From positions 130,445-194,444 of the forward strand of contig JAUSJH010000002.1 in NCBI GenBank assembly GCA_030647655.1: DNA of 64,000 bases. Reading direction: 5' to 3'. This stretch comes from a bacterium. GTDB taxonomy: Bacteria > Patescibacteriota > Minisyncoccia > Phycocordibacterales > UBA2100. The notes under the pieces are model-generated. The model was not told the origin of the DNA. It saw nothing but the letters and a program-made list of their open reading frames with translations, and ran no database searches. Below, piece by piece: positions 2,347 to 42,901 of this stretch; position 1 is the stretch's first letter; each line of letters opens with the position of its first letter. The translations under genes were made by a program, and so were the position numbers.

Positions 2347-2697
2347 ATGGCTAAGAAGCTATACGTCGGCGGGCTGCCTTACAGCACGACCGATACAGAG
2401 CTCAAAGACGCTTTTGCGCAGGCAGGAGCCGTCGAGTCTGCCACTATCATCATGGACAAGATGAGCGGCCGCTCGAAGGGTTTCGGTTTCGTGGAGATGT
2501 CTTCCGATGAGGAAGCACAGAAGGCGATTGAGATGTGGAATGGGAAGGACTTCGGCGGACGCTCGCTCACAGTAAACGAGGCGCGTCCGATGGAAGACAG
2601 GCCGAAACGCGACTTTCGTGGCGGTGGCGGTGGAGACCGCGGCGGCTACGGAGGCGGACGAGGAGGCAATGGAGGTGGAGGCGGCAGAAGCTGGTAG
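2347..2697 (+). CDS. RRM-type RNA-binding protein with Gly/Arg-rich tail
   Basis: KLYVGGLPYSTTDTELKDAF...KGFGFVEM matches RNP2 and RNP1; the C-terminus is RGG/GGYGGG-rich. Confidence 0.85.
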   Translation: MAKKLYVGGLPYSTTDTELKDAFAQAGAVESATIIMDKMSGRSKGFGFVEMSSDEEAQKAIEMWNGKDFGGRSLTVNEARPMEDRPKRDFRGGGGGDRGGYGGGRGGNGGGGGRSW

Positions 2698-2718
2698 TTT
2701 TTAGTTTCGCCTTCTCAA

Positions 2719-2747
2719 CACACGGCCCCGCCTTGCGGGGCCGTGTG
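2719..2747 (+). terminator. hairpin terminator after the RRM gene
   Basis: CACACGGCCCCGC-cttg-CGGGGCCGTGTG stem-loop followed by gtatgcttgtatt. Confidence 0.55.
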
Positions 2748-2749
2748 GT

Positions 2750-3812
2750 ATGCTTGTATTCATGTGTAAAGCTCTCTCCGCGACCGGCCTTGGCCTTTTT
2801 GTAGCAGTAGCCTTCCTTCCATTATTCGCCTCGGCAGCCACCTGCCCCAATCTCACGCAACCTCTCATACGGCTCGCGCGGGCAGGATATCGTTCAGTTG
2901 CAGAATTTCTTGGTTGCGGAAAGCGATCTCGGAGCTGGGAACAATACCGGCTACTACGGCCGCCTGACCGAAGCGGCGGTGAAATCATGGCAAGTACGAA
3001 ATGGCGTCGTCTCATCGGGAACGCCCGCGACAACCGGCTTCGGAGCCGTCGGCCCGCGCACGCGGGCGAAGATTGCGAATGTGTGTAGAGGAATAATATC
3101 TTCGCCTTTCACCGCCACACCGACATCGGGCGCGGCACCGCTCCAAGTCCAATTTACCTCTCCCTCAAGCTGCGTTCAACCGTACTCCATTGACTTTGGC
3201 GATGGCCAAACCAGCGGGCAAATCGTCGTTCCTCCGTGCAATGCCGATGGTAGCCGTCCATTACAACCAAAAAGTACTTATCATACATACGCCGCCGCGG
3301 GCACATACACGGCAAGCCTCACGGGAGAGGATCGGTCTTCTTGCAGTCCGCCGAACGCTCAAGGATTCGTTCAATGCACGTCTGCATATCGAACTACCCT
3401 CACCGTGACGATTACCGTTTCCGGAAATGGAAACACGGGAGTAAATTTCTCTGTACATCCAACATCTAGCAAGCCGCCGTTCTATGCGATATTCAGAGCC
3501 AATCTCCCGCTGTCTGAATCACCGGACGCATACTTTGTTGATTTCGGCGATGGGACCAACGCGAAAATGATTCGAAATCATGCATCGTGTATCCCGGAAG
3601 ATTATTCATGTACCGGTGGACCAGTTGCGTCGGTGTATGTATCGCACGAATATACAGTGATTGGCGTCTATGCGGCAAAACTCATAAAAGATTTCTCAGG
3701 TTGCATGCGAAATCCTGGAGGACCTTGTCTGCCTGTTTTGAATCAAATGCTCGGAACTCTGACAATTACCGTTGATCCATCGATTCCTATTCCCGATACG
3801 CGTGTGTATTAG
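2750..3812 (+). CDS. secreted peptidoglycan-binding (PG_binding_1) protein with PKD-like repeats; signal peptide is in a different frame (apparent +1 frameshift near 2860)
   Basis: The frame starting at 2750 encodes the signal peptide MLVFMCKALSATGLGLFVAVAFLPLFASAA. The frame open from 2811 encodes SYGSRGQDIVQLQNFL...GYYGRLTEAAVKSWQ (PG_binding_1) before any start codon. Later residues carry PKD signatures (FGDGQTS...HTYAAAGTYTASL; FGDGTNA...HEYTVIGVYAAKL). Confidence 0.55.
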
Positions 3813-3948: not shown

Positions 3949-4314
3949 ATGAAGTACAGCTCACTGCTTGGGTGGGGGATTGTCATTTATTCGGTCATGG
4001 CGCTTGCGTGGTCAGGCTTTGTCATCTACGGATTGTCGGGGACGCTGACTGGTCGCCTCTTGCAACTTTTGGTTTTGGTAATCGTCACAACGATCGCCGC
4101 CCGCGCGCTCAAGTTCCATTCATGGAAGGATATTCTTCCATACTCTATTCTCTGGGCAATAATGATGGGGCTTTTGGATTCCGTGTACAGCGTACCGTTT
4201 GGTGGGTGGGGAATCTATAGCGATTGGAATCTTTGGGTAGGCTATACGCTTGTGATTCTCGTGCCCCTGCTCGCGCCGAAGACGCGCGCGCTCCCGGCCT
4301 CTCACGAGGTCTGA
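3949..4314 (+). CDS. hypothetical small membrane protein
   Basis: Several predicted TM helices (GWGIVIYSVMALAWSGFVIYGL...); no recognisable family. Confidence 0.4.
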   Translation: MKYSSLLGWGIVIYSVMALAWSGFVIYGLSGTLTGRLLQLLVLVIVTTIAARALKFHSWKDILPYSILWAIMMGLLDSVYSVPFGGWGIYSDWNLWVGYTLVILVPLLAPKTRALPASHEV

Positions 4315-4323
4315 TATGCCCCG

Positions 4324-4445
4324 ACACACACAATGGCATCACAACGGTTGCAGAAGACACTGCCGTAACGTGGAACGTTTTGAGATTACCATAGATGCCG
4401 CGCACGCGGCGTATGGCATTGTAGAAACAATGCCATTGTGTGTGT
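4324..4445. promoter_or_regulatory. structured intergenic leader with mutually exclusive helices
   Basis: Arms ACACACACAATGGCAT (4324-4339) and ATGCCATTGTGTGTGT (4430-4445) form a 16-bp inverted repeat. A local hairpin GGCATTGT-agaaa-CAATGCC (4415-4434) overlaps the right arm. A second hairpin GCCGCGcacGCGGC lies at about 4397-4410. Confidence 0.35.
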
Positions 4446-4451
4446 AGGGGT

Positions 4452-5597
4452 ATGCATGCACTCAGCCTGCATCGGTTCCTTCTGCGCGCCGCACTCGCCA
4501 TCGCCTCCATATTTGCGTGGATATTCGTATTTCAATATTTTTATCTAGTCGAACATGACATCGTCCACGCATTCGCGCGCACTTTGCTCCTCTATGCGCT
4601 CTCGCAGACGATTACGTGCCTTGTCACTCCATATGCCGCGCGCTCTTTGCGCAAAGGTGTGCGCCGCATGCTACTCATCGCCACCTTCTTTCTCGCAAGC
4701 GCATTCGTAATTCTCGGAGGGGCGCTAGTCGGATTTTGGGGTAGCACATATGCATCGTCAGGAATAGTGGCTTTTGCATTCTTGCTAGGCATCTATAGAG
4801 CTCTCTACTGGATCCCGTACGCAGTGGAAGCACGTGCAGTGTCTCGGACACGTGCCACAGTTTGGGGCGAGATACTCATCGCTCTGCTTCCGGCAGTTGC
4901 AGGATTGCTAATCGCTGGCACAGCTTCCGGGCCTCTTTTGGTTCTCTTTATCGGTGCAGGCGCTGTCGCGCTTTCGGCCATTCCCATCCTATACTTTCGC
5001 AACGTCCACGAAAGATTCTCGTGGCGCTTTCGCGAGACTTTCACCGAGCTCTCGGAGCAGAGAAATCGAGCACTCGTCGTCGTAGGACTTCTTGAAGGGA
5101 TGTCGGGCGCGGCTCTTCTTCTTTTTTGGCCGCTTACGATGTTTTTGATGATGGGATGGTCGTACAGCATGCTCGGTATCACGCTCTCGCTCACATTCCT
5201 TGTCGCTGTCTTCGGGCGCTCATTCGTGCGCAAAAGACTGCGCTCGGTACGGCTTCACGATTCGGCGCTCTTGAACACTCTCTTTTCCGTTACGCCGTGG
5301 CTGTTCCGCCTTACCGTCGGGACACCCCTGCAGGCGGTATTGGTGGATTCGTATTTCTATACGACCGTACCACGCCGAAGTGGGATTGACCCCTTCACTT
5401 TTGAACAATCTGCCGACGGCGGCTCATATGTAGACGAATACACGGCACTCAAAGAAATGGCGCTCGCGCTTGGCAGGATAGCCATGTGTTTTCTCGGGGC
5501 GGGTATCGCACTTATGGTATCGCTCCCAGTAGCGTTCATTGTGGTCTTTATCATCGCCGCTATTGCTTCGGCGATGGCCACTCTTGAGCTTTCTTAG
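4452..5597 (+). CDS. hypothetical polytopic integral membrane protein
   Basis: About 10 hydrophobic segments; ATG at 4452 inside ORF 4440..5597; no recognisable family. Confidence 0.5.
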   Translation: MHALSLHRFLLRAALAIASIFAWIFVFQYFYLVEHDIVHAFARTLLLYALSQTITCLVTPYAARSLRKGVRRMLLIATFFLASAFVILGGALVGFWGSTYASSGIVAFAFLLGIYRALYWIPYAVEARAVSRTRATVWGEILIALLPAVAGLLIAGTASGPLLVLFIGAGAVALSAIPILYFRNVHERFSWRFRETFTELSEQRNRALVVVGLLEGMSGAALLLFWPLTMFLMMGWSYSMLGITLSLTFLVAVFGRSFVRKRLRSVRLHDSALLNTLFSVTPWLFRLTVGTPLQAVLVDSYFYTTVPRRSGIDPFTFEQSADGGSYVDEYTALKEMALALGRIAMCFLGAGIALMVSLPVAFIVVFIIAAIASAMATLELS

Positions 5598-6046
5598 GCG
5601 AAGAGCGACGAGATAACCGCCTTTACGTCTGCGCCATCAGCGTTGCCTGCGAACTCTTTCATAACAGCGCCCGTGAGCTTGCCAGCGCCGGACGCATCGG
5701 TAATGCCGAGTTCTGTCATTTTCGCTCGTGCAACCTTCTCGATTTCTTCGCGATTTGCAGTCTGCGGGAGGTATGCCTCGATAATTTTTAGCTCATTCGA
5801 TTCCTTTTCGGCGAGCTCGGGTCTGTTGCCCTTGGTAAATTGTTCGGCTGAATCCTTACGCTGTTTTGCAAGCCGTTTGAGTACCGTTATCGCGTCTGCC
5901 TCTGTAAGCTCTTCAGTCGGCTTGCGACCCTTTGCCACAAGCTCATTCGTAAAAGCGGCGAGCGCCCCGCGCAGAGTCTGCACGCGCAAAGCATCCCGCG
6001 CCTTCATGGCGGCGGTCATGTCAGTCCGAATCTTTTGAGTGAGCAT
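5594..6046 (-). CDS. GatB/YqeY domain protein
   Basis: TEADAITVLKRLAKQRKDSAEQF...ELKIIEAYLPQ...AGKLTGAVMKEFAGNADGADVKAVI is typical YqeY; the start was taken at the internal Met (MLTQKIRTD). Confidence 0.8.
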   Translation of the reverse strand: MLTQKIRTDMTAAMKARDALRVQTLRGALAAFTNELVAKGRKPTEELTEADAITVLKRLAKQRKDSAEQFTKGNRPELAEKESNELKIIEAYLPQTANREEIEKVARAKMTELGITDASGAGKLTGAVMKEFAGNADGADVKAVISSLFA

Positions 6047-6125
6047 CTGAACAGGATAACAAAAGGCTGCATGCGCGCAAGAGCACATGCAGCTTAAAAC
6101 GTTCTCGGTTCTTCGAAGACCCACC

Positions 6126-6413
6126 TTATGAGCGAACTCCGGGAATTTCTGCGCACGCTAGCGCCCCTGCCACACGTACCGTTCCCTCGGGCGTTGTTTT
6201 CTTTGTGAACCCCGACAGGATTCTTCCAACGTATTCCCGTCCCTTCTCGATGCATTTTTCTTGTGAACCGTGGAACCTGTCGTTGGTCTCAATCAGGACG
6301 ATTTCGGCTGCGAAAGGTGGTTGGAACGGCTCCGCTGATGCGAAGAACAGTATGGTAACCGCGAGTTCATACATCATGATAATACCTCCACGAATGAGTA
6401 TATTCGACGGCAT
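6126..6413 (-). CDS. hypothetical small protein (doubtful)
   Basis: A 95-aa ORF between the YqeY-like gene and rmuC; no homology recognised. Confidence 0.2.
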   Translation of the reverse strand: MPSNILIRGGIIMMYELAVTILFFASAEPFQPPFAAEIVLIETNDRFHGSQEKCIEKGREYVGRILSGFTKKTTPEGTVRVAGALACAEIPGVRS

Positions 6414-6440
6414 TTTGAAAGCAACACCGCGTGATAGAAT

Positions 6441-7523
6441 GTGTTCATGGAATGGCTCGTTGTCGGTCTGCTCGTCGCTATTTTGGCGCTACTCACATAT
6501 CTCCTGTGGTTTCGTCGGACGCCGCAGGAAACACAGGGGATGGTCCTGCTTCAGCAACGCATTCAGGAGCTCGAGCGGAGCATGGAGACAAAGCTCGGAG
6601 AAGGGACGGCACGTATGTTCGAGAGCATGAAGACGCAATTCGGCGAGTCGCAGAGACTTGCCTCGGACATTCGTGACTTGGTGGCCAAACAGCTCACGGA
6701 GGTACGCGTCGAGCAAACAAAGACCAACGAATCGACGACCCGCTTCATGGTGATTGCCGAACAGCTCGCGAATCTTGAAAAAGTACTCAAGCATCAAAAG
6801 CAGCGCGGGAATCTCGGCGAAGCATCACTCGAACTCATCCTCTCCAACATCCTGCCGCCCGGCTCCTACAAAATGCAGTACGAATTCCCCGGAGGAGAAA
6901 CGGTAGACGCCGTTGTTGTAACAAAGGAGGGCGTCATTCCGATTGATGCCAAATTCTCGCTCGACAACTATCAGCGCCTCGTCGACGCGATCGACGATAC
7001 CCAGCGTGCCGAACTGGAGAAACAATTCAAGAACGACCTCAAGATGCGCATCGATGAGACCTCGAAGTACGTGCGCCCTAAAGACGGCACCCTGCCATTT
7101 GCATTCATGTATATTCCCGCCGAAGCCATCTACTACGACCTTCTCATCAACGAAGTCGGCTCGGTCAAGGTCAATACGCGCAATCTCATCGACTATGCGT
7201 ACAACGAGAAAAAGGTCATTATCGTTAGCCCCACGACCTTCGCCGCCTATCTCCAGTCAGTCCTCTACGGATTCAAGGCGTTTAAGATAGAGGAGACCGC
7301 AAAAGACATTGCGAAGTTTGTTGAACAGTTAATGAGGCATATGGGCGCCTATGAGCAACACTACGAAGGCCTTGGAAACGCCCTTTCAACTGCCGTAAAT
7401 AAATACAACATTAGTCGCGGTGAATGGAAAAAGATCGACAAAGATATACTGAAAATCACAGGCACGTCCAGCGGATTAGATGTTCCCGCACTGGAAAGGC
7501 CGTCTCTTGCGGCAGATGAGTAA
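6441..7523 (+). CDS. rmuC: DNA recombination protein RmuC
   Basis: N-terminal TM helix, coiled coil, and a conserved RmuC C-terminal region (YEFPGGETVDAVVVTKEGVIPIDAKF..., FMYIPAEAIYYDLL). Confidence 0.85.
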   Translation: MFMEWLVVGLLVAILALLTYLLWFRRTPQETQGMVLLQQRIQELERSMETKLGEGTARMFESMKTQFGESQRLASDIRDLVAKQLTEVRVEQTKTNESTTRFMVIAEQLANLEKVLKHQKQRGNLGEASLELILSNILPPGSYKMQYEFPGGETVDAVVVTKEGVIPIDAKFSLDNYQRLVDAIDDTQRAELEKQFKNDLKMRIDETSKYVRPKDGTLPFAFMYIPAEAIYYDLLINEVGSVKVNTRNLIDYAYNEKKVIIVSPTTFAAYLQSVLYGFKAFKIEETAKDIAKFVEQLMRHMGAYEQHYEGLGNALSTAVNKYNISRGEWKKIDKDILKITGTSSGLDVPALERPSLAADE

Positions 7524-7556
7524 AGAGCGTATCTTGCCCCGCGGAGGTGGTGAACC

Positions 7557-7844
7557 ATGTTCAAACAAATCCCTGGGCATGCACGGGCTCATGACCTGTG
7601 GCTTGCCATTTTGTTGGCTGTTGCGGCTGGGTTAATGACCGGCACGTTACGTGCGGCAATCGGTGCAGCGTTGATTATTGCAGGCGCTTTTTTGGGATCG
7701 CAAGCGACCCATCTGGCGCAAATGCACGGTACCGATCTGCCACCGTCTTGGCTCGAACGTAACATGCAGCAATGGCGCTGGGTCTACGTCGTCTTTGGGG
7801 CGATGGTTGCGCTCATCGGATTGCATCTGTTGCTTTCGAAGTAA
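7557..7844 (+). CDS. hypothetical small membrane protein
   Basis: Three hydrophobic helices; no family recognised. Confidence 0.4.
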   Translation: MFKQIPGHARAHDLWLAILLAVAAGLMTGTLRAAIGAALIIAGAFLGSQATHLAQMHGTDLPPSWLERNMQQWRWVYVVFGAMVALIGLHLLLSK

Positions 7845-7919
7845 AGGCTCGCTGGCCGTGTCCCAAGCTCGGGATGCGGCTTGCCTTTTATGTTTTTTTC
7901 AATTATATTACTCGAACTT

Positions 7920-8240
7920 ATGGCCAAGATAGCTATCATCGAGACGGGGGGGAAGCAATACGTTGTCGTGAAGGACAGTGTTTTTGATGTTGAGAAAATC
8001 ACGGGAGTAAGCGGAGCTGGGGCTAAGATCATCTTTGATAAAGTGCTTCTCACCGACGACGGTAAGGAAGTCAAAGTCGGCGCGCCGTACGTCTCTGGCG
8101 CCAAAGTGTTTGCCGAATTGGTGGAGGAAGGTCGCGATGCCAAAGTAACGGTTATCCGTTATCGCCAGAAAAGCCGCTATTTCAAGAAAAAGGGCCATCG
8201 CCAGCCGTACGCAAAAGTGCGCATCACCGCACTCCCGTAA
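7920..8240 (+). CDS. rplU: 50S ribosomal protein L21
   Basis: MAKIAIIETGGKQYVVVKDSVFDVEKI...VTVIRYRQKSRYFKKKGHRQPYAKVRITAL. Confidence 0.9.
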   Translation: MAKIAIIETGGKQYVVVKDSVFDVEKITGVSGAGAKIIFDKVLLTDDGKEVKVGAPYVSGAKVFAELVEEGRDAKVTVIRYRQKSRYFKKKGHRQPYAKVRITALP

Positions 8241-36611: not shown

Positions 36612-38057
36612 CTACTTTCCAATCGTTGTAAAGGCGCCTCCACTTATTGTAATGATTGAGCCAGCGTAGAACGGCGAACCGGTGTCTCCGTCCGTCGTGC
36701 CGTCGCTTGTGATGAATGCCGAGTGCGCACCCTCGACGTCGGTATTACCAGACGGAGAGACGCCGAGGCCGAATCCATACAGATTTCCATCAAAACCGAG
36801 CTCGTCGTTTATATCTCGGATGTCGAATTGGACGGTGCGATTTGAGCCTGTCGTTTTGATATCTCCTTGCACATACACATCAATACTGTCGCCTTTTTTG
36901 ACAACGATACCCGGATCTAAAAGGGTTACATACTCTTTTTCGGAGTACGGGCTCACGAAGGTCGGGTACATAGCACCATCCACGACGGTTTGCACATTAT
37001 CGATGTCGTATCGACCCGCCGTACCCGATTGTGTCCAGATGATGGAAGTAAAGGTGATGTCTTCTTGCGAATTCGCGGTAACCCTGATGCCCGAAAACTT
37101 CACACCTGTCTCGTTGATATAGCGTGTGAGCGCAGTCCCAGGGTCGTAGGATGAGCGTATCGCGGTCGCGCCGCCGATGGCGAGTGAACTATTGAGCGTC
37201 TGCGGCGTACCCTTAAGCGGCAGGGTGCCTTCCACAGGGGACGAAGCACTGATACTCGCGAGCTGGATGACCGGAGTTTGGCCGTCATAGCTCGAGAGAT
37301 CGGCGTTCATGTTGGCGTAGACCTCGAGCGTCTGCTTGGAGCCGGCTGGAACGGTGAATGACCTTCTGAACGTCGCTCGATGAGTAGAGTTCAGCGACAC
37401 GACATTGCCGATTTGCAAACCTTGCTCGTCCCAGAGGCCGAAGTTCGCGAACGCCCCGTCGGCACCTATCCCCGTACGTTCGATAACGACCTCTCGCACG
37501 ACGACATCCGTGCTCCCAGCCTCCAGAGTAAAGCTTAAGAAAAGAACGCCAGCACCTTGCGGTGCGAGAGAAGGCTCCGGCTGGCCGGGGTCGCTCACGG
37601 TAAGTGTATCGGAGACTGGGACCGCGGCTGCGGCCGATGCGAGCTGTGTCATCGGGGAGGTGAATGTGTTCTGCGATGCATTCGGAGCGACGCAGAGCGA
37701 GTTCAGCATCGCACGCGTCGAAGGTCCGACGATACCTGTGCCGGCGGAGAGACCGTTCGGCGTCAAAATGTCGTCTGCATATTTCTCTTGGAACTTAACG
37801 ACGGCCTTGGCTGTGCGTGGGCCGAATGTGGTGGACTCCATTCCTGATGAGCCCGCGCCCGAAAGTGCGACCGCGGTCTCGGCGCTCGCGTTCAAGAATT
37901 GCTGCAGTTTCATCACGTCCTGACCCGTAGCACCTACCTTAAGCGGTCGTAGCCACGAATATGGGCAGACGTCCGGGGGACCTTCGGCATGTACCATCGG
38001 CGCAGCGAAGAGCGTAATGAGAAGAAGAAAAGGAAAGGCAAGAGGCACGCTTTTCAT
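36612..38057 (-). CDS. secreted protein with N-terminal peptidoglycan-binding (PG_binding_1) domain and large beta-rich C-terminal domain
   Basis: Signal peptide MKSVPLAFPFLLLITLFAAPMVHA, then GATGQDVMKLQQFLN...GPRTAKAVVKFQE (PG_binding_1). Confidence 0.6.
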   Translation of the reverse strand: MKSVPLAFPFLLLITLFAAPMVHAEGPPDVCPYSWLRPLKVGATGQDVMKLQQFLNASAETAVALSGAGSSGMESTTFGPRTAKAVVKFQEKYADDILTPNGLSAGTGIVGPSTRAMLNSLCVAPNASQNTFTSPMTQLASAAAAVPVSDTLTVSDPGQPEPSLAPQGAGVLFLSFTLEAGSTDVVVREVVIERTGIGADGAFANFGLWDEQGLQIGNVVSLNSTHRATFRRSFTVPAGSKQTLEVYANMNADLSSYDGQTPVIQLASISASSPVEGTLPLKGTPQTLNSSLAIGGATAIRSSYDPGTALTRYINETGVKFSGIRVTANSQEDITFTSIIWTQSGTAGRYDIDNVQTVVDGAMYPTFVSPYSEKEYVTLLDPGIVVKKGDSIDVYVQGDIKTTGSNRTVQFDIRDINDELGFDGNLYGFGLGVSPSGNTDVEGAHSAFITSDGTTDGDTGSPFYAGSIITISGGAFTTIGK

Positions 38058-38133
38058 GTGGCTCCATTATATACCCGCGCAATAGGAACTATGGAGGTGC
38101 TGTGTGTAGCGCAAATGGGGATATAATCCGACG

Positions 38134-38778
38134 ATGGTCATCGTAGAACTTGGGATCATCGCGGCTTCTCTTCAGGCCGCTGGGTACTTTTTCTACGGCG
38201 CTCGCATGTTGAGGAGAGATATTTTGCCTAATCCCACCTCATGGCTCATGTTCGCCTATGGCACGACCTTAATCCTCATTCTCGAATGGGACCGCGATGC
38301 GAGCCTCGCCCTCTTGATACTCCCGGCTACGTGCGCCATTTCGAGCATCGTGGTCGCGCTCTACGCGCTACGCGGCGCCCGCTCGTGGCTGCCGGAACAC
38401 CCATTCGACCGTTTTTCTTTCGCCTTCGACATCCTGCTCACCCTCGTCTATCTATTTACTTGGTTCCTACTGGTGAATGGATTCATTGTAGAAACCCAAA
38501 AAAACTTAGCTGATATTATTATCCTCGTGTCGTGGAATATTGACATCTCGGCGTTCTTCCCACTCCTACGGCAAGTTTATCGGCATCCGCACACCGAGCA
38601 CGCGATGCCGTGGATCGTCTGGACAGGCGCGTATAGCGTACTTGTACTCGCCACCGTAATCGAGACGGGTATATTCAACGAGCTCATACTCTATCCCTTC
38701 ATAAACATGATCATCCATGGATCCATCGCCATCAGAGTCGGCTTGTGGCATTGGATGCGTTCGCAACCTATAATCTGA
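38134..38778 (+). CDS. hypothetical polytopic membrane protein
   Basis: Six or seven TM helices; no family recognised. Confidence 0.45.
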   Translation: MVIVELGIIAASLQAAGYFFYGARMLRRDILPNPTSWLMFAYGTTLILILEWDRDASLALLILPATCAISSIVVALYALRGARSWLPEHPFDRFSFAFDILLTLVYLFTWFLLVNGFIVETQKNLADIIILVSWNIDISAFFPLLRQVYRHPHTEHAMPWIVWTGAYSVLVLATVIETGIFNELILYPFINMIIHGSIAIRVGLWHWMRSQPII

Positions 38779-38783
38779 CGACG

Positions 38784-39278
38784 ATGAAGAAAGTAGCCGT
38801 ACTTCGGAGCAAAATACACGGCAAGGGTTTTTTTGTTGTGAAACCTACCAAAAAAGGAGCTGTCGTCGGCATCCTGCGGGGTAAACTCCGCAAGAACGTA
38901 AGAGTAAGCAGGAACGGGAGAGACGCTTCTTCCCATCCCGATTGGATTGGCATCGGGGAAAATACGTGGCTCGATCCGAGTCCTCCATATAAATTCATCA
39001 ACCACTCGTGTAATCCCTCTGCGGGTATCAAAGGCAAAGTGACGATGATTGCGCAACGGAATCTGAAGGCAGGAGACGAAGTTACACTCGACTATTCCAC
39101 CATAGAAGAGGACACGCGCTGGCATATGAAGTGTTCCTGCAGAAGCAGGAACTGTCGAAAAGTCATCCGCTCTATCCAATTTTTGCCATATACTACGTAT
39201 AAGAGGTATCTGCCGTACATTCCGGCATACTTCCAGAAACTCTATTCAAAAGCTAGAAGTAATAGGAAGAGCGTATGA
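38784..39278 (+). CDS. SET-domain protein (putative protein-lysine methyltransferase) with post-SET Cys cluster
   Basis: GKGFFVVKPTKKGAVVG..., FINHSCNPS (the NHSC SET motif), EVTLDY, and CSCRSRNCRK. Confidence 0.7.
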   Translation: MKKVAVLRSKIHGKGFFVVKPTKKGAVVGILRGKLRKNVRVSRNGRDASSHPDWIGIGENTWLDPSPPYKFINHSCNPSAGIKGKVTMIAQRNLKAGDEVTLDYSTIEEDTRWHMKCSCRSRNCRKVIRSIQFLPYTTYKRYLPYIPAYFQKLYSKARSNRKSV

Positions 39279-39664
39279 TACTGGTCAAGACAAAAATCGG
39301 TCAAAGCAATATCCACGGAATCGGCCTGTTCGCAGCGGAGCCGATCGCCAAAGGCACAAAGGTGTGGGAATTTACGCCTGGGTTTGAGGTTGTTTTGGAC
39401 AAGGAGCAAGTTAGCCGTCTTTCCGAAGCGGCTAGAGAACAGTTCTTCCATTACGCATATCTCAGTAAGGAAAGCAGGAAATACGTTTTGTGTACTGACG
39501 ATGCTCGTTTTTTCAACCATGACGATAATTCGAACATCACATGCATAGTTCCGCGCGAAACTCGTATCGAGAACGCGCTCGAATGCTTCGCTACGAGAGA
39601 CATTCAGGCCAACGAGGAAATTACCAACAACTACCGAGAGTTCGACAGTACGCAGGAAATATGA
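39275..39664 (+). CDS. small SET-domain protein
   Basis: GIGLFAAEPIAKGTKVWEF..., RFFNHDDNSN, EEITNNY; 129 aa; overlaps the upstream SET gene's stop. Confidence 0.65.
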   Translation: MILVKTKIGQSNIHGIGLFAAEPIAKGTKVWEFTPGFEVVLDKEQVSRLSEAAREQFFHYAYLSKESRKYVLCTDDARFFNHDDNSNITCIVPRETRIENALECFATRDIQANEEITNNYREFDSTQEI

Positions 39665-39830
39665 AAACAACAAAGGAAAGCGCCTATTTTCTCGCCATAT
39701 TATTAGGATTGTTTCTGACGGCCGTTGCAATATCGTACTATCGATACATGGTCCTCCACGAATTCCAATATTTTGTAACCGAAAGTGATATCCCCGATCG
39801 GTTCGAGATGTCATCCTACACGTCCGCACT

Positions 39831-41513
39831 ATGACCGGAGAACTAGAAGCCCTCATCGAAGCGTGCGAATGGTTCCCCTCGTACTATCTCATTTTATCGG
39901 AGAACGTTTACACGCCTCTACTATATTACTCATATCTCGGCTCTCTGATACCGACCCTTCTCATTGCAGGATACGTGCTGATCAACGGCGCAAAAGAACT
40001 GGCGAACAGGCTCCTGTTCCTTATGTCTCTATGCTTCGGGATTTGGGTCTTCGGTGCCATGGTTACGTGGGCTACCGAATTTCCCTCCTATACGATGTTT
40101 TTCTGGACACTCATCAATTTGGCAGAAGCTTTCGTATACTTTCTTGCCTTCTACTTCTTCTACGTCTTCGTATTTAAGAAGGATTTGACTCTGCGACAGA
40201 AAATAATCTTCAGTTTGCCGCTGCTGCCTACGCTCGCTCTCGCTTCCACACCCTACATGCTTTTAGGATACAATCTTTCGGACTGCGACAGAAATGCCTT
40301 TGAAGGAATACTGTCGGTATGGGATTTTTCGATGGAATTCCTCTTCGCCGCCCTTATAGCCGGCTTCGCGGGATACGCGTGGAAAAACGCATCGTCTTGG
40401 GAACAAAAAAAACAAACAACACTACTTGCAACTGGTATTATCGCTTTCTTATTGAGTTTTTCCTTGGGAAATATTCTCGAAATCTTCACGGAGAATTGGT
40501 ACATTGGGCAGTATGGGCTATTCGGCGCTCCAATCTTCGTAGCATTCCTTGCCTATCTCATAGTCAGATTTAAGGCCTTCAATCTCAAGCTCATCGGTGC
40601 GCAGGCGCTTGTCACGGCTTTATGGCTTCTGGTACTCACCCTCTTATTTGTGCGGCATATTGAAAATGTACGAGTTGTTACGTCCATCACGCTCATATTC
40701 GTGCTTATACTTGGGATTATTTTGGTTCGAAGTGTGCGGAAAGAAGTGCAGCAACGAGAACTTATTCAGAAGCAGGAGCAGGAGCTCGAGGTGGTGAATA
40801 AGCAACAGGAGACCCTCTTGCACTTCATCAGTCACGAGATCAAGGGCTACCTGACAAAAGGGGAGAGTGCATTTTCTGAAATTGCCGATGGGGACTACGG
40901 CGCCATTCCGGCTGGTGTAAAAACGCTCGCGAGCGGCGCCTTGGCCGAGATGCGTAAAGGAGTGAGAACCGTGATGGAAATACTCGACGCCTCGAATTTG
41001 AAAAAAGGTACGGTGAGTTACAAAATGCAGACCTTCGACCTCAAAGCCGCCGTTGTTGACGTCGTCAACCACCTCAAGCCCGCCGCCGAAGCGAAGCACA
41101 TAGACATCAAGACGACGATAGATACGCAAGGGCGCTTTATCATGAATGGCGATGAGGAGAAGATTCGTCAGCACGTATTGCGCAACCTCATAGACAACGC
41201 CATCAAATACACACCAGAGGGGAGCATCAGCGTCGAGCTTGGGAGCTCGAACAGCCCCTCGACTTCGCTCGGGGTAAACAAAATCCGTTTTGTGGTCAAA
41301 GACAGCGGGGTGGGCATCACGCCCGAGGACATGGCGAAGCTCTTTACGGAAGGCGGCCACGGAAAGGATTCCATCAAGGTGAATTCCCACTCGACGGGCT
41401 ATGGTCTCTTCATCGCAAAGGAAATCGTGGACGCCCACGGCGGCAAAATCTGGGCAGAATCCAAGGGGCAGGGCAAGGGCTCTCGATTCATTGTCGAGCT
41501 TCCTGCGCTCTAA
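39831..41513 (+). CDS. sensor histidine kinase with N-terminal multi-TM (about 7 helices) sensor domain
   Basis: HisKA H-box (FISHEIKGYL) and HATPase_c N, G1 and G2 boxes (NLIDNAIKYT; VKDSGVGI; GYGLFIAKEIVDAHGG). No response regulator is adjacent. Confidence 0.85.
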   Translation: MTGELEALIEACEWFPSYYLILSENVYTPLLYYSYLGSLIPTLLIAGYVLINGAKELANRLLFLMSLCFGIWVFGAMVTWATEFPSYTMFFWTLINLAEAFVYFLAFYFFYVFVFKKDLTLRQKIIFSLPLLPTLALASTPYMLLGYNLSDCDRNAFEGILSVWDFSMEFLFAALIAGFAGYAWKNASSWEQKKQTTLLATGIIAFLLSFSLGNILEIFTENWYIGQYGLFGAPIFVAFLAYLIVRFKAFNLKLIGAQALVTALWLLVLTLLFVRHIENVRVVTSITLIFVLILGIILVRSVRKEVQQRELIQKQEQELEVVNKQQETLLHFISHEIKGYLTKGESAFSEIADGDYGAIPAGVKTLASGALAEMRKGVRTVMEILDASNLKKGTVSYKMQTFDLKAAVVDVVNHLKPAAEAKHIDIKTTIDTQGRFIMNGDEEKIRQHVLRNLIDNAIKYTPEGSISVELGSSNSPSTSLGVNKIRFVVKDSGVGITPEDMAKLFTEGGHGKDSIKVNSHSTGYGLFIAKEIVDAHGGKIWAESKGQGKGSRFIVELPAL

Positions 41514-41588
41514 ACATATCGCAAAAAGCTTTGCCCACAGCAATGCGGAAATGTCATACAAAGAGGCGAAATGGTATACTGACCGACT

Positions 41589-41897
41589 ATGGCGAAGAAA
41601 GAAAAGGATACCAATGGTCTGCTGTCGGAGTTGATGGCATTTGTGAAGAAACAATTTGAGCGGCAGGAAAAGCAACTCGACCGCGTTGAGAGTGTGCTTT
41701 CACTGCACCAAGACATTCTGGAAAAAGGTTCCGAAGATATGCGAGACTTACGCCAAGGACAACTCCTACACGATAAACGCTTCGACGAGCTCGATTCGGC
41801 AGTCCATGGCATATCTCGGGCAGTTGATAAAGATGCGGTAAAAGTCATTGACCACGAGCGCCGCATCATTCGCCTCGAACACTCACGGCCACGGTAA
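41589..41897 (+). CDS. hypothetical coiled-coil protein
   Basis: Charged heptad-like sequence; no family recognised. Confidence 0.35.
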   Translation: MAKKEKDTNGLLSELMAFVKKQFERQEKQLDRVESVLSLHQDILEKGSEDMRDLRQGQLLHDKRFDELDSAVHGISRAVDKDAVKVIDHERRIIRLEHSRPR

Positions 41898-42139
41898 GAC
41901 AGCATTTCTGGGTAGAATCCGACGACGGAGGTAAAGGTGCGCGATTTATTGTCGAATTCACAGTCTAGTTGCCCACATCAACCTAAAATGACATAGTTTG
42001 GAGAGTCCTGTTTGCCTTGGCAGGAAAAAGAGACTGTGCAAAAACCGCGACAGGCCCGGAAGCCTGTTTTGCGGGGGCCCTGAAGCCCTCACTACTCTTG
42101 GCCCCGGAAGGCCGAGCATCAAGGTATTGGAGACTGCAC

Positions 42140-42901
42140 GTGACTAATAATGATCTCAGGTTATCGCCCGAGCAGGTGATCTACCTGTCCGGCGGTTCGC
42201 CGAAACCGCGGATCGACGCGCTGCGTCAACTGTGGTTCGAGAAAAACGGCGAAGAACCGGTTGCCACCGGTCATGGCTGCATCCGCAGTCGGCGATTCCA
42301 ACGAATGTGGAGTTGGCCGACCATGATTGCCGGTATCGCTCTCGTCGTCGCCAGCTTCGTGTTCATGGCTGAAGCGGACAAAGCAGAAGAGCTGTACGTC
42401 ACGGGCAAAGCCGCTGCTGACAGCGGCGATGCGATGTTCAGCTACTCGTTGCTGTGTTTGGCCGTAGGGATAATCATCGGCGTGATCGGACTTTCTGGAG
42501 TCTCTGAAAGCGGACGAAAAGCTTTCAACTTCCAATATAAAGAAGGCAACTTCGGCCACGACTTCGGCTATGTCTACGATTTGCTCAAGGACCTCGAGGT
42601 CATGCAGATCGTCCAGGAAGAGAACCCGGAGTGGCGTCAGGTTTTCATCGACAAGGCCACGCAGATCCTCGACGAGCAAGCGTACAAGCTGAAAAAAGCC
42701 GAGAAGGCTAATCTCGCCAAGTACATCGGCTTCAAGATCAACGGCAAGCCCACCAAGGAAAGCGAGCGCGAGCGGGACGAGTTTTCCCGCCTCTACGACC
42801 TCTTCATCGGCTTCGGCCTTGCGGACCCCAATGGATGGGGACCCTATGACCAACATGCCGAGGAGCGGCTACTTCGCGAAGCTCAGGGCACTGCTGCCTG
42901 A
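42140..42901 (+). CDS. hypothetical membrane protein
   Basis: Two TM helices; the start is uncertain (GTG at 42140; the ORF is open from 42017). Confidence 0.4.
   Translation: MTNNDLRLSPEQVIYLSGGSPKPRIDALRQLWFEKNGEEPVATGHGCIRSRRFQRMWSWPTMIAGIALVVASFVFMAEADKAEELYVTGKAAADSGDAMFSYSLLCLAVGIIIGVIGLSGVSESGRKAFNFQYKEGNFGHDFGYVYDLLKDLEVMQIVQEENPEWRQVFIDKATQILDEQAYKLKKAEKANLAKYIGFKINGKPTKESERERDEFSRLYDLFIGFGLADPNGWGPYDQHAEERLLREAQGTAA

Follow-up and report, generated by a model that had tools for sequence, protein, structure and literature searches.

What are two SET-domain genes doing in tandem, a short way upstream of a sensor histidine kinase, in a bacterium of the Candidate Phyla Radiation (CPR)? 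The question is raised by a stretch of 64,000 nucleotides, called the window in the following (contig JAUSJH010000002.1 of the Patescibacteriota assembly GCA_030647655.1, positions 130,445 to 194,444), in which six tightly spaced genes follow one another on the plus strand from position 38134 to 41897. The first five make up the cassette considered here. It starts with TM214 (38134-38778), coding for a membrane protein of 214 amino acids with seven helices and a PQ-loop-like fold model, and continues with SET1 (38784-39278; 164 amino acids), which combines a SET and a post-SET domain with a family-specific C-terminal tail, and SET2 (39275-39664; 129 amino acids), a minimal SET protein without a post-SET region. 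These are followed by TM57 (39661-39834), coding for a single-pass membrane peptide of 57 amino acids, and by the gene for an orphan sensor histidine kinase of 560 amino acids (39831-41513), which consists of a sensor, putatively of the HisKA_7TM type, with nine predicted transmembrane (TM) helices, a coiled coil, a dimerisation and histidine phosphotransfer (DHp) domain and a catalytic domain. The stop codon of TM214 and the start of SET1 are separated by 5 nucleotides, and the three successive junctions SET1/SET2, SET2/TM57 and TM57/kinase are ATGA overlaps. All five genes described here by an earlier sequence-only reading (a polytopic membrane protein, the two SET proteins, the kinase and a small coiled-coil protein) are present at their given places, and the stop-start overlap it had seen between the two SET genes was confirmed; the small TM57 gene between SET2 and the kinase had been overlooked. 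As detailed below, it is well supported that the cassette is an old, conserved and vertically inherited operon of the Paceibacteria within the CPR rather than a recent import, and among the functions considered, methylation of lysines at the membrane in connection with kinase signalling is the likeliest.

The conservation of the cassette was followed by a kinase-side scan of metagenomes, which gave 80 loci (cited by L numbers, as are other related loci); the counts come from the 45 loci with at least 2.5 kb of sequence upstream of the kinase. SET1 and TM214 were each found in 18 of these, with TM214 placed upstream of SET1, and SET2 in three, while a PrmA-like methyltransferase was present in six, some methyltransferase in 24 and a receiver domain in none. 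The commonest full arrangement among the kinase-anchored metagenome loci is TM214-SET1-TM57-kinase, without SET2. In a neighbour-joining tree of the 80 kinases, the linkage to SET1 is scattered over most of the clades, in which the identity to the kinase of the window is only about 40-55%. The order SET1-SET2-TM57 of the window, in contrast, is confined to a single kinase clade (8 of its 10 members), and SET2 is absent from most SET1-TM57-kinase cassettes; it also occurs in reverse orientation in two other kinase clades, and L029 and L046 show the order SET2-SET1-kinase. From these distributions, the tandem pair appears to be a derived state that arose when an existing operon of SET1 and the kinase gained a minimal SET gene, and genes of the SET2 type appear to have entered this kinase family on more than one occasion. 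All loci with at least 56% SET2 identity show the order SET1-SET2-TM57-kinase where the contig allows it, and the complete order TM214-SET1-SET2-TM57-kinase recurs at 56-74% SET2 identity with different outer flanks. Variants are SET1-TM214-SET2 in L009, two copies of SET1 in L008 and a mixed order TM57-TM179-SET1-kinase in L149. The SET pair and the kinase therefore recur together in relatives, and the tandem pair, which had been regarded as unusual, is so outside this clade but is a recurrent, inherited arrangement within it.

The position of the cassette on the chromosome is conserved as well. In the window, the kinase gene sits between dnaK-dnaJ plus a gene for a protein of about 160 amino acids on one side and trpS-aspS-scpA-scpB on the other, and the same position is occupied in Kaiserbacteria relatives with a kinase of only 48% identity. 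Because the site is syntenic down to this level of identity, the whole module appears to be inherited and not a recent island. The nearest named homologues of SET1, SET2 and the kinase all come from Kaiserbacteria, Taylorbacteria, Zambryskibacteria, Parcubacteria or Paceibacterota metagenome-assembled genomes.

SET1 is predicted to be an intact lysine methyltransferase of the SET plus post-SET type. It matches the Pfam model SET (PF00856) with an E-value of 1.9e-7 (31.9 bits at a cut-off of 22.4), aligns over both the SET and the post-SET region with MLL1/KMT2A (7u5v, E 2.4e-9), and also matches the bacterial enzyme BurB in the PDB (E 2.4e-5). The GxG motif for binding of S-adenosylmethionine (AdoMet), the NHSC motif, the catalytic tyrosine and the CxCx4C zinc cluster of the post-SET region are kept, and the invariant positions of the family comprise G15, N73-H74-S75-C76, D103-Y104, C117, C119, C124 and R125 as well as the C-terminal tail IRSIQFLP...PYIP.YF. 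The protein shares SET and post-SET regions, NHSC motif, catalytic tyrosine and zinc cluster with the MLL/Set1 (KMT2) enzymes, but differs from them by its length of only 164 amino acids, the lack of accessory domains, its own C-terminal tail and its partnership or fusion with a seven-helix membrane protein. The motifs recorded by the sequence-only reading for the two SET proteins (NHSCNPS, EVTLDY and the CxCx4C cluster in one, NH and EEITNNY in the other) are all there and show little or no variation in the respective families, and both proteins are significant SET matches in Pfam. We place the start of SET1 at ATG 38784, as in the identical NCBI protein, which is named SET domain-containing protein-lysine N-methyltransferase, and not at the upstream GTG 38745. 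For Logan contig L001, whose DNA is that of the window, a 144-amino-acid open reading frame (ORF) on the opposite strand (2695-3129) was called instead of SET1, and the automatic calls for contig L002 left a gap (5502-6001) where SET1 belongs. Because the gene callers missed SET1 on both Logan contigs examined, the family may be under-counted in protein databases.

No function could be assigned to TM214 from its sequence: it has no match in Pfam at E-values up to 0.1 or in NCBIfam, its family profile found nothing among the PDB sequences at E-values up to 10, and the PQ-loop repeat was not recognised in the sequence. The family has only 254 representatives at E-values up to 0.001 among 1.84 billion cluster representatives. 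An AlphaFold2 model based on 75 homologues (predicted local distance difference test, pLDDT, 95.7; predicted template modelling score 0.90) shows seven helices, and 9 of the 11 top matches in a Foldseek search of the PDB are to cystinosin or the KDEL receptor, with TM scores of 0.47-0.61, probabilities of 0.91-1.0 and E-values of 0.09 or worse. On this model, TM214 resembles these PQ-loop proteins in its seven helices and best structural match, and is unlike them in being bacterial, in lacking a sequence match, and in being partnered or fused with a SET protein and in one case with a CHASE4 domain. Among the best 150 TM214 representatives, 11 are TM214-SET1 fusion proteins, in which the SET1-type domain is C-terminal and retains the family tail; one of them (P0438) carries two SET1-type domains, and in L011 both proteins form a single fused ORF of 399 amino acids (4765-5964). 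The C-termini of cystinosin and the KDEL receptor are cytosolic, so a SET domain fused in this position would face the cytoplasm. We regard it as well supported that TM214 is the membrane partner or anchor of SET1, to which it is fused in other organisms. Another family member of 417 amino acids (P0331) contains TM214 followed by a further TM helix and a CHASE4 sensor domain, without any SET domain, so the TM214 fold also occurs within a sensor-domain protein.

Two loci outside the CPR show the fusion in unusual surroundings. The insert in L011 (JACPOA010000035.1, labelled Hyphomicrobiales; 4189-8209) has 50-59% GC within an alphaproteobacterial contig of 62-69% GC, the fusion gene is followed by a frameshifted SET2 (5971-6426 and 6207-6401), and an ORF of 64 amino acids (4189-4383) nearly repeats the C-terminal part of another of 237 amino acids (7496-8209). 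This insert looks like a module that was transferred from a CPR-like donor and then decayed. In L172 (1-10890) and L173, a TM214-SET1 fusion of 543 amino acids (P0342) adjoins TrwB-like, DUF87, DUF3768 and HTH_36 genes; these neighbours point to an element of the conjugative or integrative kind, so outside the CPR the membrane-SET module may be carried by mobile elements.

SET2 matches the Pfam SET model over its full length (E 5.2e-16, 59.4 bits at the same cut-off). Within the family, G17, N81 and H82 do not vary and Y120 hardly varies; the protein has no membrane anchor and lacks the post-SET CxCx4C cluster, as is usual for minimal SET proteins. It is similar to Go1-SET and the minimal vSET proteins (about 120-130 amino acids) in its size, in having no pre- or post-SET region and in keeping the GxG motif, the NH motif and the catalytic tyrosine, but differs from them in its translational coupling with another SET gene and with a sensor kinase, in a CPR bacterium. 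The 173 homologues include Kaiser-, Taylor- and Parcubacteria as the named ones, and relatives of about 50% identity are present in Methanosarcina and many bacterial phyla, mostly as stand-alone genes without a kinase. In the four Methanosarcina loci (L015, L017, L020 and L061), the identity is about 50% over 125 residues and the products have 131 amino acids; these homologues were not tied to the Go1-SET accession AAM32541. Parasitism of methanogenic archaea has been reported for some Patescibacteria (PMC10936435), and a transfer of SET2 between Methanosarcina and Patescibacteria is conceivable.

The kinase carries a clear catalytic domain (HATPase_c, E 4.9e-25), and its DHp and catalytic region aligns with the models of WalK, PhoR and VanS, in the case of WalK and PhoR from about residue 300-320 onwards; the Pfam HisKA model gave no match at E-values up to 0.1. 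In 25 aligned sequences, H335, N452, N456, D491, G493, G495, F505, G523 and G525 are invariant together with C12 and C152, and both the phospho-accepting histidine and the N, G1, F and G2 boxes are retained. The HisKA_7TM model (PF16927) does not match the window kinase at E-values up to 0.1, whereas several full-length homologues of 50-56% identity carry it. An AlphaFold2 model of the sensor (pLDDT 82.9) contains nine TM helices, compared to the approximately seven expected from the sequence-only reading, and a beta-hairpin on the outside. Searching with this model in Foldseek yielded generic bundles of the rhodopsin and G protein-coupled receptor type only (TM score about 0.45), without a clue to a ligand. 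Both C12 (in a CEW motif) and C152 (in CDR) are predicted outside the membrane, one of them in the beta-hairpin between TM4 and TM5, and judging from the model a disulfide between them on the sensing side is possible. Compared to HisKA_7TM kinases, with which it shares a complete DHp and catalytic core and a multi-helix sensor bundle, the window kinase is distinguished by nine predicted TM helices plus a separate tenth one in TM57, by the missing adjacent regulator and by its linkage to methyltransferases.

TM57 is the commonest neighbour of the kinase and lies upstream of it, in a short or a long form, in 41 of the 45 loci; on the Logan contig identical to the window it is an annotated gene. 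The family shows the consensus TYYRY.V..DF..FT.EE.IP, and its profile matches residues 11-41 of an N-terminal extension in three of the seven kinases with about 600 amino acids. A BLASTP comparison of TM57 with a long kinase gave nothing significant, and because the fused segment is detected by the family profile alone, the evidence for this fusion is moderate. With the catalytic core inside and nine TM helices, the N-terminus of the kinase should be outside, which agrees with TM57 serving as a tenth helix of the sensor in an N-in/C-out orientation. TM57 therefore looks like an additional N-terminal helix that became detached from the kinase sensor. MgrB and SafA are small membrane peptides which modulate sensor kinases, and TM57 is like them a short single-pass peptide encoded beside a kinase. 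It departs from MgrB and SafA in its translational coupling with the kinase, in its presence at 41 of 45 loci and in its fusion to the kinase N-terminus in some relatives, and on these grounds it resembles a structural helix encoded apart from its protein more than a modulator under regulation of its own. In some more distant kinase loci (L123, L125, L127, L135 and L136; e.g. L136:4536-4943), TM57 is replaced by a form of about 135 amino acids, in which the same N-terminal helix is joined to a domain rich in Cys (CDP...C.C..D.C), for which an extracellular location is predicted.

The kinase has no visible response regulator, as the sequence-only reading had stated. We used a receiver (REC) profile built from CheY, OmpR, PhoB, NarL and Spo0F. 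Classical regulators of non-CPR loci are recognised by this profile, which detected no receiver domain within the 64 kb of the window or next to a cassette kinase in about 100 related loci. The sole CPR match, in L136, lies beside a second, unrelated kinase. Instead of SET1, some loci contain a PrmA-like class-I methyltransferase of 279-283 amino acids, whose best match in Pfam is PrmA at E 3e-15, immediately before the kinase gene (L124:4115-4966, L137:4142-4981 and L158:4142-4981), and homologues are located near the kinase in L119, L120 and L156/157. This gene is often preceded by TM179, coding for a membrane protein without a Pfam match. PrmA itself is the methyltransferase of ribosomal protein L11. 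Other recurrent neighbours of the kinase are EamA transporters, LPG_synthase_C, AdoMet decarboxylase and the unassigned families labelled TM179 and X275. A protein of 366-377 amino acids also recurs beside the kinase in Kaiserbacteria (L099, L124, L148 and L166-L168; e.g. L124:2991-4103); it has no Pfam match, and its N-terminus, CNEWDPLEEVVVG, appears amidinotransferase-like by eye. Taken together, the kinase neighbours hint at a theme of amines or envelope charge.

The base composition of the cassette had been taken to indicate a foreign origin. The 2,730 bp from SET1 to the kinase have 48.4% GC, which is below all 1,117 windows of equal length elsewhere in the 64 kb (mean 53.4, standard deviation 1.5, minimum 49.5). 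The reported drop is thus real, but it starts from a baseline of 53% (mean of the 64 kb, 53.1%) and not of 58-60%; values of 55-59% are reached in the immediate flanks only. Codon usage gave a divided picture. GC at third codon positions (GC3) is normal for the kinase (0.615) and TM214 (0.656) against a background of 0.603 +/- 0.047, and 0.9-2.2 standard deviations low for the small genes SET1, SET2 and TM57, and the synonymous codon choice of SET1 (z -3.7), the kinase (-3.0) and SET2 (-2.4) falls in the low tail of the background (standard deviation 1.5, range -3.2 to 3.6). The dip in GC is located mainly at codon positions 1 and 2, and the cassette proteins are enriched in F, Y, M, I, N and K (z +1.7 to +3.1) and depleted in G, A, R and P; most of the low GC can be ascribed to this hydrophobic protein composition rich in Lys, Asn and Ile. 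In 14 relatives, the GC content of the cassette follows that of the host genome from 31 to 59% and stays below that of the flanks in 13 of them, by 0.01-0.09. Because it tracks the hosts and is almost always lower than the flanks, the dip appears to be a trait of this set of proteins and not a foreign signature, and the cassette a long-term resident.

We tentatively favour the following explanation of the locus as a whole. The cassette is an ancestral operon of the Paceibacteria with two modules, the PQ-loop-like TM214 partnering SET1, and the nine-helix sensor kinase with its helper helix TM57, between which the soluble SET2 was inserted in the kinase clade of the window; the genes are translationally coupled. 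TM214 would hold SET1 at the cytoplasmic face of the membrane, where SET1, and probably also SET2, may N-methylate one or more lysines of a membrane-proximal protein in the kinase pathway. Candidate substrates are the assembly of kinase, TM57 and TM214 or a downstream partner, and methylation and histidine kinase signalling would form one envelope- or contact-sensing circuit. A functional link between SET proteins and kinase, called speculation by the sequence-only reading, is now backed by the conservation of a translationally coupled adjacency over deep divergence, and further by the independent re-association of SET2 with this kinase family and the occupation of the same slot by a different methyltransferase family. 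Several observations weigh against this explanation. Roughly half of the kinase loci lack a methyltransferase in the vicinity, no substrate of the SET proteins was identified from the sequences, and we saw no candidate for a lysine demethylase, so that a reversible adaptation cycle of the CheR/CheB kind is without support. TM214 was rejected as a self-substrate of SET1 because its family has no invariant lysine. The N-terminal tail of TM57 in the window's clade, M-x-T/A-T-K-Q/E/G-S, loosely resembles the ARTKQT of histone H3, but was likewise dismissed as a substrate because the N-terminal lysine is equally common in loci without a methyltransferase nearby. In L011, L171 and L172, which are non-CPR contexts, TM214-SET1 fusions are found where this kinase is absent, so SET1 does not need the kinase as a substrate. 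Finally, scans for promoters and terminators between 37.9 and 43 kb gave counts at chance level, and we infer co-transcription of the cassette from the spacing of the genes only.

The main rival to this explanation is that TM214 and SET1 form a carrier-coupled N-methyltransferase for small molecules or lipids, which is possible if on the unlikely side. TM214 would bind or move a cationic amine, such as free lysine, a lysine-containing peptide or an aminolipid like lysyl-phosphatidylglycerol, SET1 would methylate it at the cytoplasmic face, and the kinase would only share the operon as a sensor of envelope or cations. A precedent is BurB, a bacterial SET enzyme which methylates free methionine (PMC12542666) and is matched by SET1. 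The best structural relatives of TM214 are PQ-loop carriers and receptors, the TM214-SET1 pair is self-contained without the kinase, and LPG_synthase_C, EamA and AdoMet decarboxylase are functions connected with amines or envelope charge. Against this, SET1 shows the full signature of protein lysine methyltransferases and has its best matches among the MLL/Set1 histone methyltransferases, the gene replacing it belongs to a family typed by a protein methyltransferase, and the Foldseek E-value for TM214 is weak (0.09) with no PQ-loop link at the sequence level. A cytoplasmic target is assumed by another explanation, which we consider unlikely: the SET proteins, and SET2 above all, would methylate nucleoid-associated or ribosomal proteins, and their adjacency to the kinase would be due to co-expression or inherited order. 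The SET protein of Methanosarcina mazei (Go1-SET) methylates the DNA-binding protein MC1-alpha in vitro (PMC3980110), and by analogy a nucleoid protein is a plausible target for SET2, which is about 50% identical to SET proteins of Methanosarcina, lacks a membrane anchor and belongs to a family found alone, without the kinase, in most other lineages. A nucleoid or ribosomal target, however, leaves unexplained the TM214-SET1 fusions, the repeated independent placement of SET2 beside this kinase family in three arrangements and the PrmA-like replacement at the same site.

The same observations bear on the view, improbable to us, that no functional link exists and the gene order merely persists from a common ancestor because this part of the small genomes rearranges slowly. 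The cassette does lie within a strongly syntenic block of housekeeping genes, and the many kinase loci without any methyltransferase are in line with this view, but the outer neighbours vary between loci around an intact cassette, the start-stop overlaps are kept, SET1 is linked to kinases of most clades in spite of their low identity, and a different methyltransferase family appears in the same slot. Vertical inheritance is in turn denied by the proposal of the sequence-only reading that the region is a horizontally acquired module, which in its strictest form would be a recent island with effector-like SET proteins, for example for delivery into a host cell. The low GC content and the codon choice of SET1, SET2 and the kinase are compatible with a recent arrival, and the TM214-SET1(-SET2) module can move, as indicated by the L011 insert with a duplicated gene fragment beside it and the conjugation-type genes next to the fusion in L172. 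The syntenic site in distant relatives, the adjustment of cassette GC to hosts between 31% and 59%, the normal GC3 of kinase and TM214 and the absence of a tRNA gene from the window speak against it. Both SET proteins also have the SET catalytic domain in common with secreted effectors such as Legionella RomA/LegAS4, Chlamydia NUE/cpnSET, BaSET and BtSET, and SET2 gives a weak match to the LegAS4 model (E 1.2e-4, well under its cut-off); in contrast to these, they have no ankyrin repeats or nuclear localisation signal and, by eye, no secretion signal or N-terminal signal peptide, they are chromosomal, syntenic and in an operon with a kinase, and SET1 is tied to the membrane of the organism itself. 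For the module as a whole, the recent-island reading is therefore largely refuted and an effector island hardly credible; what remains of the acquisition claim applies to SET2, which looks added to the cassette since it occurs with 8 of the 10 kinases of a single clade, is missing from most SET1-kinase cassettes and belongs to a patchy family including Methanosarcina. Membrane-linked lysine methylation in an inherited operon stays our preferred reading.

CC102 (41589-41897, plus strand), coding for a protein of 102 amino acids, starts 75 nucleotides after the stop codon of the kinase; it has no significant family match in Pfam or NCBIfam and was found, besides L001, only in the closest relative L002, which makes its membership in the module doubtful. 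Upstream of the cassette, a gene on the minus strand (36612-38057; about 56% GC) codes for a secreted-looking protein of 481 amino acids with a peptidoglycan-binding domain, and downstream there is an ORF of 294 amino acids with a TTG start (42017-42901, plus strand; 192 amino acids on the Logan contig) without any family. Neither of the two flanking genes is kept beside the cassette in relatives. None of the small proteins is named by NCBIfam, and scans of the 64 kb window for tRNAs and Rfam families gave no match. PADLOC produced weak GHKL-type matches on the kinase only, so there is no sign of a defence system.

In the literature searched, we found nothing on operons of SET genes and histidine kinases, on SET proteins in the CPR, on the gene neighbourhoods of SET proteins or on a membrane-anchored SET module, and the sole mentions of HisKA_7TM are in two surveys covering the histidine kinases of archaea and eukaryotes. 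The architecture of the cassette, the TM214 and TM57 families and the linkage of SET proteins to a kinase therefore appear to be undescribed, although SET proteins, histidine kinases and the PQ-loop-like fold are already known kinds. To our knowledge, bacterial SET proteins have been discussed almost only as secreted effectors mimicking the histone methyltransferases of a host, or as oddities. Here, a SET enzyme which is catalytically intact as judged by its residues is bound by its operon and by repeated fusion to a membrane protein of the bacterium itself, and within a sizeable CPR lineage, a sensor kinase without a visible response regulator is linked to it as well. Two unannotated families, TM214 and TM57, are thereby defined, and the locus offers a testable entry to the role of SET-domain methylation inside bacteria and to the question of how CPR bacteria, with their very few signalling proteins, sense their surroundings or hosts. 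A bolder version of the favoured explanation, which we consider distinctly unlikely, is that the SET methyltransferase anchored by seven TM helices is the working partner of the response-regulator-less kinase, that methylation rather than His-Asp phosphotransfer carries the output, and that the PrmA-like enzyme has the same role in sister lineages. Lysine methylation would then set the state of the split kinase, or the kinase complex would gate the methyltransferase. If the methyltransferase were indeed the signalling partner of the kinase, the finding would matter much more.

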